DNA of 6,492 nt from a virus. Lineage: Duplodnaviria > Heunggongvirae > Uroviricota > Caudoviricetes. Shown here piece by piece: positions 1 to 6,492 of the stretch. Made by a program: the position numbers and the translations under genes. Position 1 is the stretch's first letter, and the number at the start of each line of letters is the position of its first letter. A model generated the notes under the pieces. The model did not search any database and was not told the DNA's origin. It saw only the letters and a program-made list of their open reading frames with translations. The DNA lies in the IMG/VR virus record IMGVR_UViG_2537561930_000009. One strand, 5' to 3'.

Positions 1-10
1 TTTAGTGTAA

Positions 11-116
11 TGTTCTCAGATTGCGGCTTTAATTCTTGATTTGTGTTCTTTATTATGCTTTTGTCATTAACTTGTTTTTATGTTCTTTATTTGTGTTCTT
101 GGGTTGGTAAGGTTGG
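11..116. repeat. Short direct repeats in AT-rich leader: TGTTCT(T/C) at 11-17, 44-50, 81-87 and 94-100, ATTTGTGTTCTT at 39-50 and 89-100, and GGTTGG at 102-107 and 111-116; function unknown (iteron-like or protein-binding sites possible)
   Basis: Read directly from the sequence; no coding frame covers the region. Functional assignment is speculative. Confidence 0.25.
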
Positions 117-289
117 GAGAATTAATAGAGAAAACGTATCTCATTGATGATTTTTATCATGTTTCCCTAGTTTTACATGATTTCCTTTCTTAAAAAAAGA
201 TGATGAATATCAATTAGTTATTATTATATTGTTGTTCGTTTCATGCATTTCGGGAGGAGAACAAAAGATGATTTGGCTTAAATATTCAC

Positions 290-367
290 CTTTGCGTTTT
301 TCGTTTTGCTTTGCCTTTTTCATGCAAATTTGCTAGAAATAAGCAAAGATTTAATTATTAAGCAAAG
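290..367 (+). promoter_or_regulatory. Putative sopA promoter/operator with repeated CTTTGC/GCAAAG hexamers and a 10-bp palindrome
   Basis: CTTTGC at 290-295 and 309-314, GCAAAG at 343-348 and 362-367, perfect palindrome GCAAATTTGC at 324-333. Candidate -35 TTGCTA (330-335) and -10 TAATTA (353-358) with 17-bp spacing. GGAG at 377-380 sits 8 nt before the sopA ATG. In F plasmid, SopA autorepresses via CTTTGC repeats in its own promoter (established knowledge); exact sites here are inferred. Confidence 0.45.
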
Positions 368-388
368 TTACAAGCTGGAGATGACAGT

Positions 389-1555
389 ATGTCTTTGAAA
401 AAGTTATTGCAAGATTGTGTTACGAGAGGTCAAGAAATGACCAAAGCAATTGCTATCGCTCAATTCGGTGATGATAGTCCTGAAGCTCGGCGTATCACCC
501 GCCGATGGGGTATAACTGAAGTAGCAGATTTAATTGGTGTAACTCCTCAAGCAATTAGAGATGCTGAAAAGAGCGGGCGTTTACCTGCACCTGACTTTGA
601 AATGAGAGGAAGAATTGAACGTCGTGCTGGTTATACCATAGATCAAATCAACAGTATGCGAGCAGTTTTTGGCAACCCAAACCAACGACCACAAGATAAA
701 AACCCTGTTGTGCTTGCCGTTATGTCACACAAAGGCGGCGTTTATAAAACATCGTCTGCGGTGCATCAAGCTCAATGGTTAGCATTACAAGGTCATCGTG
801 TTCTTTTGGTTGAAGGTAACGATCCTCAAGGCACGGCCTCTATGTATCACGGTTATGTTCCTGATTTACATATCCATGCCGAGGATACTTTACTGCCATT
901 TTACTTAGGAGAACGCGATAACGCTGAATATGCTATAAAGCCAACATGTTGGCCTGGGCTAGACATTATCCCTAGCTGCCTAGCTTTACATCGTATAGAA
1001 ACAGATCTCATGCAATATCATGCTCAGGGTAAATTGCCTCATCCTCCACACCTTATGCTACGCGCAGCTATTGAATCAGTTTGGGATAACTACGATGTTA
1101 TCGTTATAGATAGTGCTCCGAACCTCGGTACAGGAACCATTAACGTTGTTTGTGCCGCTGACGTTATTGTTGTTGCTACACCTGCAGAATTATTTGATTA
1201 CGCTTCTGTTCTGCAGTTTTTCACAATGCTTCTCGATCTATTGGAAAGCGTTGACCTAGGTGGATTTGAGCCAACCGTTCGCTTACTTCTGACTAAATAT
1301 AGTCTCACTACAGGGAATCAATCACGATGGATGGAAGAACAAATAAGAAATACATGGGGATCAATGGTATTACGTCAGGTTGTACGCGTTACCGATGAAG
1401 TAGGTAAAGGCCAGATAAAAATGAGAACAGTATTTGAACAAGCAGCAAACCAACGTTCAACATTGAATGCATGGAGAAATGCTGTTTCTATATGGGACCC
1501 TGTTTGCCGAGAAATTTTTGATGATCTAATAAAACCTCGCTGGGAGAACGAATAA
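389..1555 (+). CDS. sopA: Plasmid partition ATPase SopA (ParA family, type Ia)
   Basis: 388-aa ORF with deviant Walker A KGGVYKTS and an N-terminal extension typical of autoregulatory type Ia ParA. Long stretches match the remembered F-plasmid SopA (e.g. EMTKAIAIAQF, LLVEGNDPQGTASMYHG, WPGLDIIPSCLALHRIE, VIDSAPNLG, RMRTVFEQA). SD GGAG lies 8 nt upstream. Confidence 0.95.
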   Translation: MSLKKLLQDCVTRGQEMTKAIAIAQFGDDSPEARRITRRWGITEVADLIGVTPQAIRDAEKSGRLPAPDFEMRGRIERRAGYTIDQINSMRAVFGNPNQRPQDKNPVVLAVMSHKGGVYKTSSAVHQAQWLALQGHRVLLVEGNDPQGTASMYHGYVPDLHIHAEDTLLPFYLGERDNAEYAIKPTCWPGLDIIPSCLALHRIETDLMQYHAQGKLPHPPHLMLRAAIESVWDNYDVIVIDSAPNLGTGTINVVCAADVIVVATPAELFDYASVLQFFTMLLDLLESVDLGGFEPTVRLLLTKYSLTTGNQSRWMEEQIRNTWGSMVLRQVVRVTDEVGKGQIKMRTVFEQAANQRSTLNAWRNAVSIWDPVCREIFDDLIKPRWENE

Positions 1556-2520
1556 TGAAACAGCGCTCTCTTCTGAAAAATGCTCCAGATATTAATCGCA
1601 TTATGAGTAATAATCATCATGCCCCTGAACATCAGCCCGTATCACCTATAGTTGGTGATTTAAAACGTCAACTGAGTTCATTAACCGGTAACAGCATAAC
1701 TTTGCCAGTATGCGGACGTAATGTTAACTTTAAGTTAGAGACAATTCCCGCAGATAAAGTTGAAATGGCAACAATGGTATGGCTAGGTAATGAACGCGAT
1801 CAAGATTTATTAAATGAATCCTCTCTAGCCGATTTAATCCCATCTTTTCTAACGTCTGGACAACAAAATCCAGCTTTCGCCAGAAAAGTATCTGGAATCG
1901 TTGAAGTCGCTGACGGCTCACGTAGAAGAAAAGCAGCGATATTAACAGGATGTGACTATCGCGTCTTAATTGGTGATCTCGACGATGAACAGATGCATTG
2001 GTTATCCCAAATTGGTAACGATTATAGGCCTATTAGTGCATACGAAAGAGGAAAGAGATACTTACGCAAGCTAAATGACTTTGATGGTAACGTTAAAGCA
2101 TTAGCCGAGGCTGAAAATATAGATAGAAATATTATCACTCGCTGTATCAATACAGCTGGTCTACCAAAAGATATATTAGCTATCTTCAATCATCCAGGAG
2201 AACTGTCAGCTCGTGCTGGAGATTCTTTGTTTAAGGTTTACAAAAAAAACATGGCTGCCATGAGCAATGCTGCTCATCATCTTCTGGCAATTAAAAAAAA
2301 CGGCGAGGATTTAGAATCTTCACGGATTATACAAATACTATCTGACTCTGTTCTGGTTGGCGACGAGGAAAAAACAAAAGACGAGAAAAAATATGGGGAA
2401 GGGATTACTGCTAGATATAAAGGTAATTTTGTAACTATAAAAATTGATAGCCGAAAAATATCTAAAGAAATACTAAGCAGAATTGAGTTGTTACTAGAGG
2501 AACAATCTACTGATAATTAA
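1555..2520 (+). CDS. sopB: Plasmid partition centromere-binding protein SopB (ParB family)
   Basis: 321-aa ORF whose start overlaps the sopA stop (TAATG, translational coupling). Matches remembered F SopB motifs (ITLPVCGR, WLGNERDQDLL, LIPSFLTSGQQNPAF, VADGSRRRKAA, DDEQM, GNDYRPISAYERG, ITRCINTA, HPGELSAR). Confidence 0.93.
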   Translation: MKQRSLLKNAPDINRIMSNNHHAPEHQPVSPIVGDLKRQLSSLTGNSITLPVCGRNVNFKLETIPADKVEMATMVWLGNERDQDLLNESSLADLIPSFLTSGQQNPAFARKVSGIVEVADGSRRRKAAILTGCDYRVLIGDLDDEQMHWLSQIGNDYRPISAYERGKRYLRKLNDFDGNVKALAEAENIDRNIITRCINTAGLPKDILAIFNHPGELSARAGDSLFKVYKKNMAAMSNAAHHLLAIKKNGEDLESSRIIQILSDSVLVGDEEKTKDEKKYGEGITARYKGNFVTIKIDSRKISKEILSRIELLLEEQSTDN

Positions 2521-2524
2521 GAAG

Positions 2525-2547
2525 TATCCCCTGCATTGCAGGGGATA
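2525..2547. terminator. Perfect palindrome TATCCCCTGCA-T-TGCAGGGGATA between convergent sopB and the invertase; likely bidirectional intrinsic terminator (alternatively a protein-binding site)
   Basis: 11-bp perfect arms read directly; effective stem about 9 bp with a 5-nt loop; flanked by T-containing tracts on both strands (TTGATTTAT on plus). Sits in the 49-bp gap between two convergent stop codons. Confidence 0.4.
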
Positions 2548-2569
2548 TTGATTTATGGTTGTACTCCAG

Positions 2570-3124
2570 TCAATGATTCCCAGCCGGAAACCTGCGGTAA
2601 AGCGTGGATAAAGCAACATCGAAGATAATCGCTATCTGTTTACGTGAAACACCATTCACAATAAGCCTTCCGACCTGTTCCCATTGCTCGGGTGCCAGTT
2701 TTGAGCGGCGCCCCCCTATCCTACCGTTAGCCCTTGCCACCGCTAATCCTGCACGCGTTCTTTCAATAATATTTTCCCGCTCCATCTCTGCGACCGCACT
2801 CAGCATTGTGTAGGCAAAGCGGCCAATTGATGTGCTAATTTTTATTCCTTCTGTAACAGAAATAAATTCAATGTTGTTTGATAAAAAATAGTTAAGCAAT
2901 TCAACAAGATGAATCAGAGAACGCCCCATTCTGTCCAGCTTCCAGACAATAACCGTATCACCCGGTCGTAACGCTTTTATCAGCTTATCCAGTCCTGGTC
3001 GTTTTGACTTCGCGCCAGATATTTTATCTTCAAAAATCCGGTCACATCCTGAACTCCTGAGCGCTTCCAGTTGTAACTCCAAATTCTGGTCAAAAGTTGA
3101 CACTCTCGCATAGCCGTATTGCAT
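2570..3124 (-). CDS. Serine recombinase, DNA invertase of the Gin/Cin/Pin/Hin family
   Basis: 184-aa ORF. N-terminal catalytic motif GYARVSTFDQ with the putative active-site serine at residue 9, then IFEDKISG, VWKLDRMGRS, AEMEREN.IERT, GRIGGRR and a C-terminal HTH (GVSRKQIAIIFDVALSTLYRRF). Lies adjacent to an inverted-repeat-bounded segment. By eye roughly half of residues match remembered Gin/Cin/Pin. Confidence 0.93.
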   Translation of the reverse strand: MQYGYARVSTFDQNLELQLEALRSSGCDRIFEDKISGAKSKRPGLDKLIKALRPGDTVIVWKLDRMGRSLIHLVELLNYFLSNNIEFISVTEGIKISTSIGRFAYTMLSAVAEMERENIIERTRAGLAVARANGRIGGRRSKLAPEQWEQVGRLIVNGVSRKQIAIIFDVALSTLYRRFPAGNH

Positions 3125-3188
3125 ACTTTCTAACCTGCAATTGTTGCTGAAAGCGGGAAAAAATATCGTTCAGACGACACGGAGGCAA

Positions 3189-3214
3189 TTCTCAAAAACC
3201 TCGGTTTACAGGAA
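3189..3214. repeat. Left crossover site (gix/cix-like), TTCTCAAAAACCTCGGTTTACAGGAA, predicted central dinucleotide at 3201-3202
   Basis: Near-identical to the remembered Mu gix site (TTATCCAAAACCTCGGTTTACAGGAA). Its reverse complement recurs at the right window edge; the perfect inverted repeat spans 3194-3222 versus 6464-6492 (29 bp). Confidence 0.85.
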
Positions 3215-4363
3215 ACGGTAAATCAGGCTTCTGGCGCATTACAGAAAAACCAGAACGGCGCAGATATTCCCGATAAAAAACTATTCCTGCGTAATATCGG
3301 CACAACAAATTCAACAACCATGTCTTTTAGTGGTGGTACAGGATGGTTCAGGCTGGCAACTGTAACCATGCCCCAGGCCAGTTCCGTGGTTTACATAAGC
3401 CTGATTGGTGGTGCAGGGTATAACGTTGGCTCCCCGCATCAAGCAGGCATCTCTGAGCTGGTTCTTCGTGCGGGAAATGGGAATCCAAAAGGTCTTACCG
3501 GTGCGTTATGGCGACGGACATCGGTTGGACTTACTAATTTTGCATGGGTGAATACATCCGGTGATACCTATGATGTTTATGTTGAAATAGGTAATTACGC
3601 CACACGTGTTAATATTCAGTGGGATTATACCAGTAACGCCAGCGTAACGATTCATACATCACCATCTTATACAGCGAATAAACCAACAGGCCTGACAGAT
3701 GGAACTGTATATGTAATTTACAGTTCGCACATTAAACCGACTGCTGCTGAGGTTGGGGCGTTGTCATTATCTGGCGGTCAATTGAATGGTGCACTGGGCA
3801 TCGGAACATCCAGTGCTCTTGGCGGTAACTCGATTGTTTTGGGTGATAATGACACCGGATTCAAACAGAATGGTGATGGTATTCTGGATGTTTACGCTAA
3901 TAGTCAGCGAGTATTCCGCTTTAAGAATGATGCAGCTTTTTCTTTAAAAAAATTGCTGATCGGAGATAGTAAAACTTTTTCATTATCAAGTTCAAACACA
4001 TCCACTAAGAACGTAATCTTTAATCTATGGGGTACCTCTACTCGTCCTGTTGTAGCTGAATTAGGTGATGATTCAGGATGGCATTTCTATAGCCAGCGAA
4101 ATACAGATAACTCGGTAATATTTTCTGTTAACGGTCAGATACAGCCCAGCAACTGGGGGAATTTTGATTCACGCTATGTAAAAGATGTTCGCCTGGGTAC
4201 ACGTGTTGTTCAGACTATGCAAAAAGGTGTGATGTATGAAAAATCAGGTCATGTAATTACAGGGCTTGGCATTATTGGCGCTGTTGATGGTGATGACCCA
4301 GCAGTATTCAGACCAATACAAAAATACATCAATGGCACATGGTATAACGTCGCACAGGTGTAA
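3194..4363 (+). CDS. Tail-fibre C-terminal variable region, arm 1 (Sv-like); 5'-partial exon that needs fusion to the constant part by inversion
   Basis: The frame is open from 3134 and runs through the crossover site (encoding KNLGLQETVN) in frame into the 347-aa ORF listed at 3320..4363; a stop at 3131-3133 closes the frame upstream. Ends ...RPIQKYINGTWYNVAQV, resembling remembered side-tail-fibre C-termini. No plausible independent start, consistent with Mu S / P1 S organisation. Confidence 0.85.
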   Translation, partial: KNLGLQETVNQASGALQKNQNGADIPDKKLFLRNIGTTNSTTMSFSGGTGWFRLATVTMPQASSVVYISLIGGAGYNVGSPHQAGISELVLRAGNGNPKGLTGALWRRTSVGLTNFAWVNTSGDTYDVYVEIGNYATRVNIQWDYTSNASVTIHTSPSYTANKPTGLTDGTVYVIYSSHIKPTAAEVGALSLSGGQLNGALGIGTSSALGGNSIVLGDNDTGFKQNGDGILDVYANSQRVFRFKNDAAFSLKKLLIGDSKTFSLSSSNTSTKNVIFNLWGTSTRPVVAELGDDSGWHFYSQRNTDNSVIFSVNGQIQPSNWGNFDSRYVKDVRLGTRVVQTMQKGVMYEKSGHVITGLGIIGAVDGDDPAVFRPIQKYINGTWYNVAQV

Positions 4364-4894
4364 GTGATGCAGCATTTAAAAAACATCAGATCTGGAAATC
4401 CAAAAACAAAAGAACAATATCAGCTAACAAAGAATTTTGATGTTATCTGGTTATGGTCCGAAGACGATAAAAACTGGTATGAGGAAGTGAAAAACTTTCA
4501 ACCAGACACAATAAAGATTGTTTACGATGAAAATAATATTATTGTCGCCATCACCAAAGATGCATCCACGCTTAACCCTGAAGGTTTTAGCGTCGTTGAG
4601 GTTCCCGATATTACAGCCAACCGACGTGCTGATGACTCCGGGAAGTGGATGTTTAAGGATGGAGCTGTGGTTAAACGGATTTATACGGCAGACGAACAGC
4701 AACAACAGGCCGAATCACAAAAGGCCGCATTGCTTTCCGAAGCTGAATCAGTCATCCAGCCGCTGGAACGCGCTGTCAGGCTGAATATGGCAACAGACGA
4801 GGAGCGCACACGACTGGAAGCATGGGAACGCTACAGTGTTCTGGTCAGCCGTGTGGATACGGCAAATCCTGAATGGCCACAAAAGCCTGAATAA
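4364..4894 (+). CDS. Tail-fibre assembly protein (U/Tfa family), arm 1
   Basis: 176-aa ORF immediately after Sv (GTG at 4364, ATG at 4367). Resembles remembered Tfa chaperones ([28 protein letters not shown]...[22 protein letters not shown]). N-terminal and central parts are shared with the U' remnant on the other arm. Confidence 0.9.
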
Positions 4895-4899
4895 AAATT

Positions 4900-4919
4900 A
4901 AGGCCCGATAGCGGGCCTT
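4900..4919. terminator. Bidirectional intrinsic terminator hairpin between convergent U and U' (AAGGCCCG-ATAG-CGGGCCTT)
   Basis: 8-bp GC-rich stem with 4-nt loop; A-run upstream (TTTTT on the minus strand after the hairpin) and GTTTCATT downstream on plus; sits between the two convergent stop codons. Confidence 0.5.
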
Positions 4920-4922
4920 GTT

Positions 4923-5273
4923 TCATTCTGGTTGTTCTGGAAACGTTACTGGCAGGCTGGAGGTGTCTGTAGATTCGACTTTCTGCGCATAGAGCATCCA
5001 CTCGGTTAATTTTTGTTTATTCTCGTCGGAAATGATACCCAGCCGTAGCTGTGAGTCCCATAGCTGTGTTTTATCCCTGACGAGCTGTAGCAGGCTTTGC
5101 TTTTCATTTTCCGCTTGTTGCCTCTGCTCTTCCTCGGTATAAGTTCGCTTTATCACTACGCCATCTTTGAACATCCATTTACCCGAAATATCAGCCCGGC
5201 GATTTGCTGTAATATCAGGAACCTCAACGACACTTTTTCCCTCCGGGCAAATTGCAGTCACATCCTTTTGCAC
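4923..5273 (-). CDS. Tail-fibre assembly protein (U'/Tfa family), arm 2; N-terminally disrupted, probable pseudogene as sequenced
   Basis: 116-aa ORF from GTG, aligning with U residues 61-176. The homologous start (ATGATG at 5457..5452, 3 nt after the Sv' stop) encodes [21 protein letters not shown], then a TAA at 5394..5392. Relative to U there is one extra base near the T-run at 5396-5398, and the downstream frame continues ...TKNSGVVWLWTEDGKNWYEE. Confidence 0.6.
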   Translation of the reverse strand: MQKDVTAICPEGKSVVEVPDITANRRADISGKWMFKDGVVIKRTYTEEEQRQQAENEKQSLLQLVRDKTQLWDSQLRLGIISDENKQKLTEWMLYAQKVESTDTSSLPVTFPEQPE

Positions 5274-5459
5274 GTCGCATATAACATTATTTTCATCATA
5301 TGCAATTTTTATAGTGTCGTCCTGAAAGTTCTTTTGTTCCTCATACCAGTTCTTACCATCTTCGGTCCATAACCAGACGACGCCTGAGTTTTTAGTTTAA
5401 AAGATATTGTTCTTTGGTTTTTGGATTGCCTGGCTTTATGTTTTTTAAATGCATCATAA

Positions 5460-6221
5460 TCAAATACTCGATACGTTATACCATGTGCCATTAATATTTT
5501 TTTGAATTGGTCTGTAATAAACACCACCAATATTATCGGCAGAGTGTGAGCCTGTATCCTGAACAATTATTCCGGTATATGCGCAACCAGATGGAGCCTG
5601 ATGTGTCCATGTTGTGCCATTATTTGCTGGTTTGTATGATGATGCGCCACCAAGTCGGATATCACGTACATAACGGGAGTCAAAATTACCATAATTGCCG
5701 GGAATAATTTGCGAGCCGCAAAGCCAATTCCCGTTATTATCCATGTACGCCTGACCATCGGTGCCATTGTCTGTCCTTGAGTTATTAATCATGTAGATGC
5801 CAAATTGCCTATTCCCCAGTCCACCAATCATAAATTTGCGGTCAGCATGGTCCTGACGTAGCAATGCCTGGGCGCTATCAGTTTTAACTATATTTCTCCC
5901 AAAGATAGCGTTGTTATCGCGCATCTGAATCCACATACCATTACTGCTGTTAATAGCAAAACGGTTTGCAAATATATCCCCTGTAACATCAAGACCATGC
6001 CCCATGCTTATCCGACCAGTTCTAAGATTAAGCGTAAAGGGGCGTAGTGGCCCTATATCACCATTTTCTCCCTCGTTCTCTCGTGTAGGGATGATATGCA
6101 GGCATTCTTCAGAACGGCGAAAAATGGCACCAAAAGATGAATTAAATATCCTCAGTGCATTGACTGTCGATATTTTTACTTCACTGCTAGAAAAGGGCTT
6201 TAACAAGGACAGACAAAGCAT
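5460..6221 (-). CDS. Tail-fibre C-terminal variable region, arm 2 (Sv'-like), C-terminal portion; out of frame with the crossover-site frame
   Basis: 253-aa ORF ending ...YYRPIQKNINGTWYNVSSI and sharing GNFDSRYVRDIRLG with arm 1. Its frame is open only from 6233 and is +1 relative to the frame entering from the right crossover site. Confidence 0.7.
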   Translation of the reverse strand: MLCLSLLKPFSSSEVKISTVNALRIFNSSFGAIFRRSEECLHIIPTRENEGENGDIGPLRPFTLNLRTGRISMGHGLDVTGDIFANRFAINSSNGMWIQMRDNNAIFGRNIVKTDSAQALLRQDHADRKFMIGGLGNRQFGIYMINNSRTDNGTDGQAYMDNNGNWLCGSQIIPGNYGNFDSRYVRDIRLGGASSYKPANNGTTWTHQAPSGCAYTGIIVQDTGSHSADNIGGVYYRPIQKNINGTWYNVSSI

Positions 6222-6492
6222 CCCATTTAAGAGTCATCAGGTCTTTTGTTGTGGTGCTCTGGCGGCTTCTCCATTTGAAATATTCATTGCCGTTGTCGCC
6301 TGTTTCAAACCACATGAATGAATCAGTGTCGCTGTCGGCATTATTTTTAAAACCAATCTTTGCCCAGTCAGTATTTCTAACCCAGGCAAGGATTGAGTCG
6401 TTTTCAAAAGTAAGCCCACCGGACAAGGTATCGCCATTCTTTTGCACGGCGTTCCTGGCCCTGTTTACCGTTTCCTGTAAACCGAGGTTTTT
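6187..6492 (-). CDS. 3' end of the tail-fibre gene as currently joined (constant part beyond the window, reading through the right crossover site); terminates at TAG 6189..6187
   Basis: Minus-strand frame is open from the window edge: KNLGLQETVNRARNAVQKNGDTLSGGLTFENDSILAWVRNTDWAKIGFKNN...FMWFETGDNGNEYFKWRSRQSTTTKDLMTLKWDALSVLVKALF*. These motifs resemble remembered side-tail-fibre proteins. 5'-partial at the window end. Confidence 0.75.
   Translation of the reverse strand, partial: KNLGLQETVNRARNAVQKNGDTLSGGLTFENDSILAWVRNTDWAKIGFKNNADSDTDSFMWFETGDNGNEYFKWRSRQSTTTKDLMTLKWDALSVLVKALF
6472..6492. repeat. Right crossover site (gix/cix-like), TTCCTGTAAACCGAGGTTTTT..., truncated by the window end; predicted central dinucleotide at 6484-6485
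   Basis: Reverse complement of the left site; matches the remembered gix sequence TTCCTGTAAACCGAGGTTTTGGATAA over the visible 21 bp. Confidence 0.85.

Follow-up and report, generated by a model that had tools for sequence, protein, structure and literature searches.

The invertible segments of phages Mu, P1, and P7 and the side tail fibre gene of phage lambda PaPa are the closest described counterparts of the locus presented here. The G segment of Mu, which carries U and U′ (PDB 5YVQ), resembles it in having two convergent Sv-plus-U arms, inverted crossover sites, and an adjoining serine invertase, whereas it differs from it in that our U′ is frameshifted after codon 20; moreover, Mu is a transposable myovirus, while the present DNA appears to come from an N15-like linear plasmid prophage whose tail resembles that of lambda (J, Lom, and an Stf-type fibre in its relatives). 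The C segment of P1, served by Cin, is similar in sequence, as the DNA from U to U′ is 86-87% identical to P1 records and is accompanied by a Cin-type invertase and cix-like repeats; it differs in the backbone and in the position of the segment, since our invertase gene abuts parB close to a putative hairpin telomere. In P7 (AF503408), in which a Fis-dependent enhancer is annotated inside cin, the U gene (3275-3808) contains a stop in frame at codon 94 (ISGK*MFKDG), which divides it into Ua and Ub. Lastly, in lambda PaPa, a single-base frameshift in stf, reportedly described by Hendrix and Duda in 1992, is said to abolish the side tail fibres and to leave a phage that is viable on its J tip fibre.

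The window, i.e. the whole stretch of 6,492 nt analysed here, is the complete contig AQFH01000052.1, read in the reversed direction, of assembly GCA_000356745.2 (a 2013 draft), whose proteins are labelled in GenBank as Escherichia coli 201600.1. Its features are the following:

389-1555: SopA/ParA.
1555-2520: ParB.
2570-3124, minus strand: serine DNA invertase of the cin/gin type, 184 aa (Pfam Resolvase 154 bits, HTH_7 51.6 bits).
3194-3222: left crossover site (gix/cix-like), in perfect inverted repeat over 29 nt with 6464-6492.
3194-4363, plus strand: Sv, the alternative C-terminus of the fibre, its frame uninterrupted between the crossover site and the stop, with a 347-aa ORF from the ATG at 3320.
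4367-4894, plus strand: U, the intact 175-aa chaperone of the other arm (Pfam Caudo_TAP, 129.6 bits, a score that refers to the 176-aa form of U starting at GTG, 4364-4891).
4899-4920: hairpin resembling a bidirectional terminator, located where U and U′ converge.
4923-5395, minus strand: the rest of U′ in a shifted frame, corresponding to codons 21-177 of the intact protein and ending at TGA 4925-4923.
5392-5457, minus strand: 5′ stub of U′, with an ATGATG start, 21 codons, and a premature TAA at 5394-5392, identical to codons 1-20 of intact U′.
5396-5398: T run (AAA on the coding strand) with one extra base; two bases in all relatives.
5460-6492, minus strand: Sv′, variable C-terminus of the side tail fibre, whose frame, open from the crossover site, is cut at TAG 6189-6187.
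6464-6492: right crossover site (gix/cix-like), in perfect inverted repeat over 29 nt with 3194-3222 and also the end of the contig.

The invertase gene adjoins an invertible segment of 3.3 kb that consists of two convergent arms, Sv-U on the plus strand and Sv′-U′ on the minus strand, both of which open from the crossover repeat, inside the fibre reading frame. In the window, the partition genes sopA and parB are the only members of the N15-type set that were recovered by profile matching. The relatives that are identical over positions 1-3196 carry a TelK-type protelomerase and a perfect 42-bp palindrome whose centre lies 49-50 bp to the left of window position 1; further leftward, identical or near-identical relatives have the TelK-type protelomerase gene and the gene of a large replication protein, annotated as CyRepA1 in the closely related plasmid L006, and rightward of the window they have a 1000-aa Stf-type side tail fibre, Lom, J, and I. 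Because the flanks of the relatives hold the protelomerase, the replication gene, and the Stf, Lom, J, and I genes, the element is assigned, from gene content, as an N15-like linear plasmid prophage with an invertible fibre segment of the Mu/P1 type.

The palindrome (ACATAATTCCCCATTATACGC/GCGTATAATGGGGAATTATGT) is located in the relatives between the protelomerase gene and sopA, at 8377-8418 in L008 and within 8250-8550 in L007, and looks like a telomere resolution site of the N15 type. In contig L007 it is read through into an inverted copy of window positions 1-3227, as a hairpin telomere predicts, and thus the window would represent the terminal 6.5 kb of the linear plasmid prophage. Just inside the telomere, two direct copies of TTCTT(G/T)ATTTGTGTTCTT are found at 33-50 and 83-100, 50 bp apart, and similar motifs are repeated around the palindrome in L007; these copies could be putative protein-binding sites. 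An imperfect 40-bp palindrome (CTTTGCCTTTTTCATGCAAATTTGCTAGAAATAAGCAAAG) at 309-348, about 40 bp 5′ of the sopA start and also present in L008, looks like a putative operator.

The disruption of U′ is apparent from its reading frame. Specifically, the gene begins on the minus strand with ATGATG at 5457, with two bases between the Sv′ stop (TGA 5462-5460) and this start, so that, as the initial annotation had stated, the start lies 3 nt past the last base of the Sv′ stop (5460); the frame runs for 21 codons and meets TAA 5394-5392 at codon 22. The homology resumes in another frame (TKNSGVVWLWTEDGKNWYEE...) and extends for 156 codons to TGA 4925-4923. U′ was aligned with the window's own U, with three plasmid copies that are 95-98% identical, and with the 99.5%-identical L007 and L008, and in all alignments the same column holds the extra base, an A on the coding strand within minus-strand TTTTAA[A]CTAA, that is, within the plus-strand T run 5396-5398. 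The claim that one extra base in this run breaks U′ near its 5′ end is therefore borne out, and the nucleotide alignment that had been proposed for placing the indel returns a single inserted base. Removal of one T from 5396-5398 gives a 177-aa ORF that is 100% identical to U′ of L007 and L008, so the resemblance is not a matter of chance. Some details of the first reading need correction: the N-terminal residues of U′ were said to match those of U in full over 20 positions, of which 16 are identical; the stub was described as 20 residues before the stop and is 21 residues long; and the full length, put at about 175 aa, was nearly right, the intact protein having 177. In the shifted frame, the only canonical start is GTG 5273, from which the annotated 116-aa fragment is derived (GenBank ENA11299.1).

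The rebuilt 177-aa protein matches the Pfam family PF02413 (Caudo_TAP) with 123.9 bits (curated cut-off 22.1; 109.3 bits for the 116-aa fragment), and aligns over residues 1-177 with chain positions 1-175 of phage Mu protein U (PDB 5YVQ_B, E 1.5e-64), a full-length match that extends the likeness to the Mu G segment to the protein itself. In addition, the gene lies directly downstream of the Sv′ fibre gene. On this homology and position, U′ can be identified as the tail fibre assembly chaperone (Mu U, P1 U′, and lambda Tfa family) of the Sv′-U′ arm and, lacking as recorded an uninterrupted ORF of about 175 aa, it is a disrupted member of the tail fibre assembly family.

The same arm carries a companion lesion. 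The intact 925-aa fibre of plasmid NZ_CP076307.1 matches Sv′ in two frames by tblastn, and DNA alignment locates one extra base at 6189 (minus strand TTTTC[T]AGC), which creates TAG 6189-6187; deletion of 6189 reopens the frame, and the rest of Sv′ is found in another frame as a 253-aa ORF (6221-5460). Both disruptions are +1 insertions, and the comparison with the fibre and with the DNA upholds the earlier reading of a second, independent single-base insertion in the U′ arm. The statement that the other arm is clean holds for the reading frames of Sv and U, which are open, but not at 3530, where Sv has a private F>L change although the site is otherwise invariant. Within Sv, the N-terminal region (3319-3841) is a mosaic that follows the variant of L031 and L032 to the left of about 3530 and that of L024 and L028 to the right, which suggests that this patch may be a recombinant between sampled variants. 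Moreover, the protein encoded by Sv 3278-3796 shares about 85% identity with residues 262-434 of the long fibres of P1-like plasmids, residues that lie in those fibres well upstream of the part aligning with the window's crossover site (about 583 onwards); by these alignments, fibre modules appear to be shuffled between elements.

According to the Mu/P1 paradigm, the invertase would swap the DNA between the crossover sites and join the constant fibre part, located beyond the right contig end, to Sv or to Sv′, each with its own chaperone gene behind it. Both orientations of the segment are present among near-identical elements, and hence the switch is active in nature: L007 and L023 are colinear with the window, while in L008, L024, L025, L026, and L028 this segment has the opposite orientation with respect to cin and parB, with the change of orientation in near-identical relatives occurring at the left crossover site 3194-3222. 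The 1011-aa fibre of L007 is the intact version of the recorded orientation, with the Sv′-U′ arm at the expressed position. As its end falls within a crossover site, the assembled contig does not fix the orientation that the segment has in the cells.

As recorded, U′ is a null allele: the extra A after codon 20 shifts the frame, translation would stop after 21 residues, and the remaining 156 codons have neither a start codon nor a promoter of their own. In the recorded orientation, with Sv′-U′ beside the constant S part as in L007, the fibre is predicted to be cut 101 residues past the crossover site and to be left devoid of its chaperone, while a flip by Cin would restore an intact set of Sv and U. 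The switch would thereby be left with only one working state.

The distribution of the lesions was assessed among the relatives. The exact 175-aa U protein of the window occurs in 11 contigs; in nine other contigs with identical U, from about eight samples (two may derive from one metagenome), U′ has 177 aa and Sv′ is open in nine of nine. The changes private to the window are four:

5396-5398: an extra T, absent in all relatives; U′ frameshift.
6189: an extra A, absent in all relatives; TAG in Sv′.
6381: C, with T in all relatives, near and distant, P7 included; I>V in Sv′.
3530: C, with T in all relatives, near and distant; F>L in Sv.

From 3842 to the contig end no further private differences from the relatives are found; the other variable sites of this part (4017, 4034, 5540, 6317) split the relatives, some of which share the window allele, and the remaining differences are confined to the Sv patch 3319-3841. 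All four private changes fall inside the invertible segment and none in 1-3196, and the 3.2-kb backbone is 100% identical to that of L013. A scan of viral, genome, and metagenome collections for the pattern of both alleles recovered no inserted U′ allele and four more intact sites; BLAST of the U′ region against complete E. coli genomes and plasmids likewise gave no copy with the insertion, and exact look-up of the truncated U′ and Sv′ products yielded no other assembly with the same lesion. The 116-aa fragment has one other match, L018 (Logan SRR33714886, 93% identical), in which the same called fragment results from a 20-bp deletion in U′ at about 1090-1100. The cluster member P0035, considered as a closer relative, is only 90% identical and was set aside. 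Single-base deletions are present in other records, namely in GCA_013363225.1 (L007, L025), in parA at the window equivalent of 804 and in Sv at 3821, and in the sparsely annotated CP042632.1 (L003), in U′ at column 53 of the alignment. Records of this element family commonly show indel errors or lesions. Since the U′ lesion is in no relative and the arm otherwise matches intact copies, the lesion is private and very young.

The reading that we prefer by a narrow margin, to which we assign an even chance, is that the U′ frameshift arose very recently as a true mutation and is private to the strain E. coli 201600.1. The lesion would then sit on an allele otherwise identical to a working one, beside an equally young single-base insertion in Sv′. 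In favour of real mutation are the private A:T>G:C substitutions at 3530 and 6381, both at sites invariant in every relative. A second, diverged copy mixed into the assembly was considered as the source of the private changes and rejected, as every relative has T at both 3530 and 6381; because such mixing cannot explain these two sites, a genuine branch private to this lineage is probable. A real event is also favoured by the coherent spectrum of the changes, of which two are A:T>G:C transitions and two are +1 A:T insertions, and by the real-looking independent lesions of the same type of gene, i.e. the 20-bp deletion of L018 and the nonsense codon of P7 U. Other properties weigh against a real mutation. 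Spontaneous mutation in E. coli yields indels and substitutions at a ratio of about 1:10, from which two insertions against two substitutions are far removed; the Sv′ insertion duplicates no neighbouring base, which is unusual for real slippage; and, the 3.2-kb backbone being 100% identical to L013, four private changes in 3.3 kb look locally excessive. Furthermore, both insertions follow a CTTTT run on the same strand by at most 3 nt, and about 12% of the arm positions are that close to a homopolymer of at least four bases, resulting in a joint chance of about 0.015, judged after the fact.

The initial annotation had left room for a shared homopolymer error mode, and rightly so, because this common context fits a shared mode of error as well as one of mutation. 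If the error were in the consensus or in the sequencing, U′ and Sv′ would both be intact in the strain and both bases would stem from one context-dependent error; we rate this reading as a serious one that falls somewhat short of an even chance. It is in agreement with the observation that, over 3531-6492, nothing but the two insertions and one substitution separates the window from intact copies, with both lesions being +1 and placed at most 3 nt after CTTTT on one strand, and with their occurrence in no other assembly examined. Flow-based sequencing is expected to produce an extra call downstream of a homopolymer, and the T inserted after TTTTC in Sv′ resembles such a call. The records CP042632 and GCA_013363225.1 visibly carry errors of this kind, and the source is a 2013 draft, the one assembly of the strain that was available. 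Conversely, high-coverage Illumina data would be very unlikely to give two consensus insertions in a space of 800 bases, the remaining 4.9 kb of the contig, with five intact genes, contain no indel, and consensus errors hardly account for the two private substitutions, which lie at sites that are otherwise invariant. A search of the literature for the sequencing method of the source gave no paper or statement, and whether the lesions are in the DNA or in the assembly is decidable only from the reads.

All four private changes could be real as the outcome of a mutator-type burst, or of selection that silences the arm in the expressed position, which we regard as improbable; in that case, a two-state host-range switch of a linear plasmid prophage would have become an on/off switch for the side tail fibre. 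More doubtful still is a long-standing decay of a disused Sv′-U′ arm into an old pseudogene, for which two disabling lesions within one arm would speak and which the first reading had favoured as real decay of the arm. Neither lesion is common to any relative, and the arm matches, one base aside, copies that look functional in about eight other samples; with the two insertions and the I>V change at 6381 set aside, it is base for base as in these intact copies, so that old-pseudogene decay is unsupported.

The weakest reading, that U′ still works through programmed +1 frameshifting at TTA-AAC-TAA or as a truncated chaperone from GTG 5273, is scarcely credible even though the shifted frame is open from 5395 down, the stop codon comes just past the shift site, and the 116-aa fragment retains its Caudo_TAP score, because all relatives encode U′ in one frame and none has the extra base, so that the shift site is not a conserved recoding signal, the codons on direct reading give no tRNA re-pairing in the +1 frame and are not slippery, no Shine-Dalgarno-like motif precedes GTG 5273, a scan of 4850-5500 found no promoter-like site, and the product from GTG 5273 would be devoid of the first 61 of 177 residues, which align with the Mu U structure. 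Programmed frameshifting and re-initiation at GTG 5273 were thus rejected, the site being unconserved and having no slippery codons, ribosome-binding motif, or promoter.

If the lesion is a real, private mutation, as we prefer, the element would be able to produce functional side tail fibres in one switch state and not in the other. Were it an artefact, it would only be a warning that the database entries from this contig for a 116-aa "tail fibre assembly protein" and for 248/253-aa "phage tail proteins" are fragments of ordinary genes. Either way, the finding has little significance beyond annotation. A real lesion would amount to a small natural loss of host range, comparable with the stf frameshift of lambda PaPa and the split U of P7. 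The lambda case is similar in that a single-base frameshift hits the side-tail-fibre function of a lambdoid siphovirus, and it differs in that it affects the fibre gene, at a non-invertible locus, and was shown experimentally, whereas the present lesion is known from sequence alone. P7 is closer, in that one arm of its invertible C segment has an interrupted chaperone gene and the last 83 residues of its U are identical to those of our U′; it differs in that the interruption is a nonsense codon in the middle of the gene, whereas that of U′ is a one-base insertion near the 5′ end. The U′ disruption is thus an ordinary single-base frameshift in a well-known type of gene, seen in one draft assembly, and adds nothing new to a family in which P7 already has a nonsense-split U.
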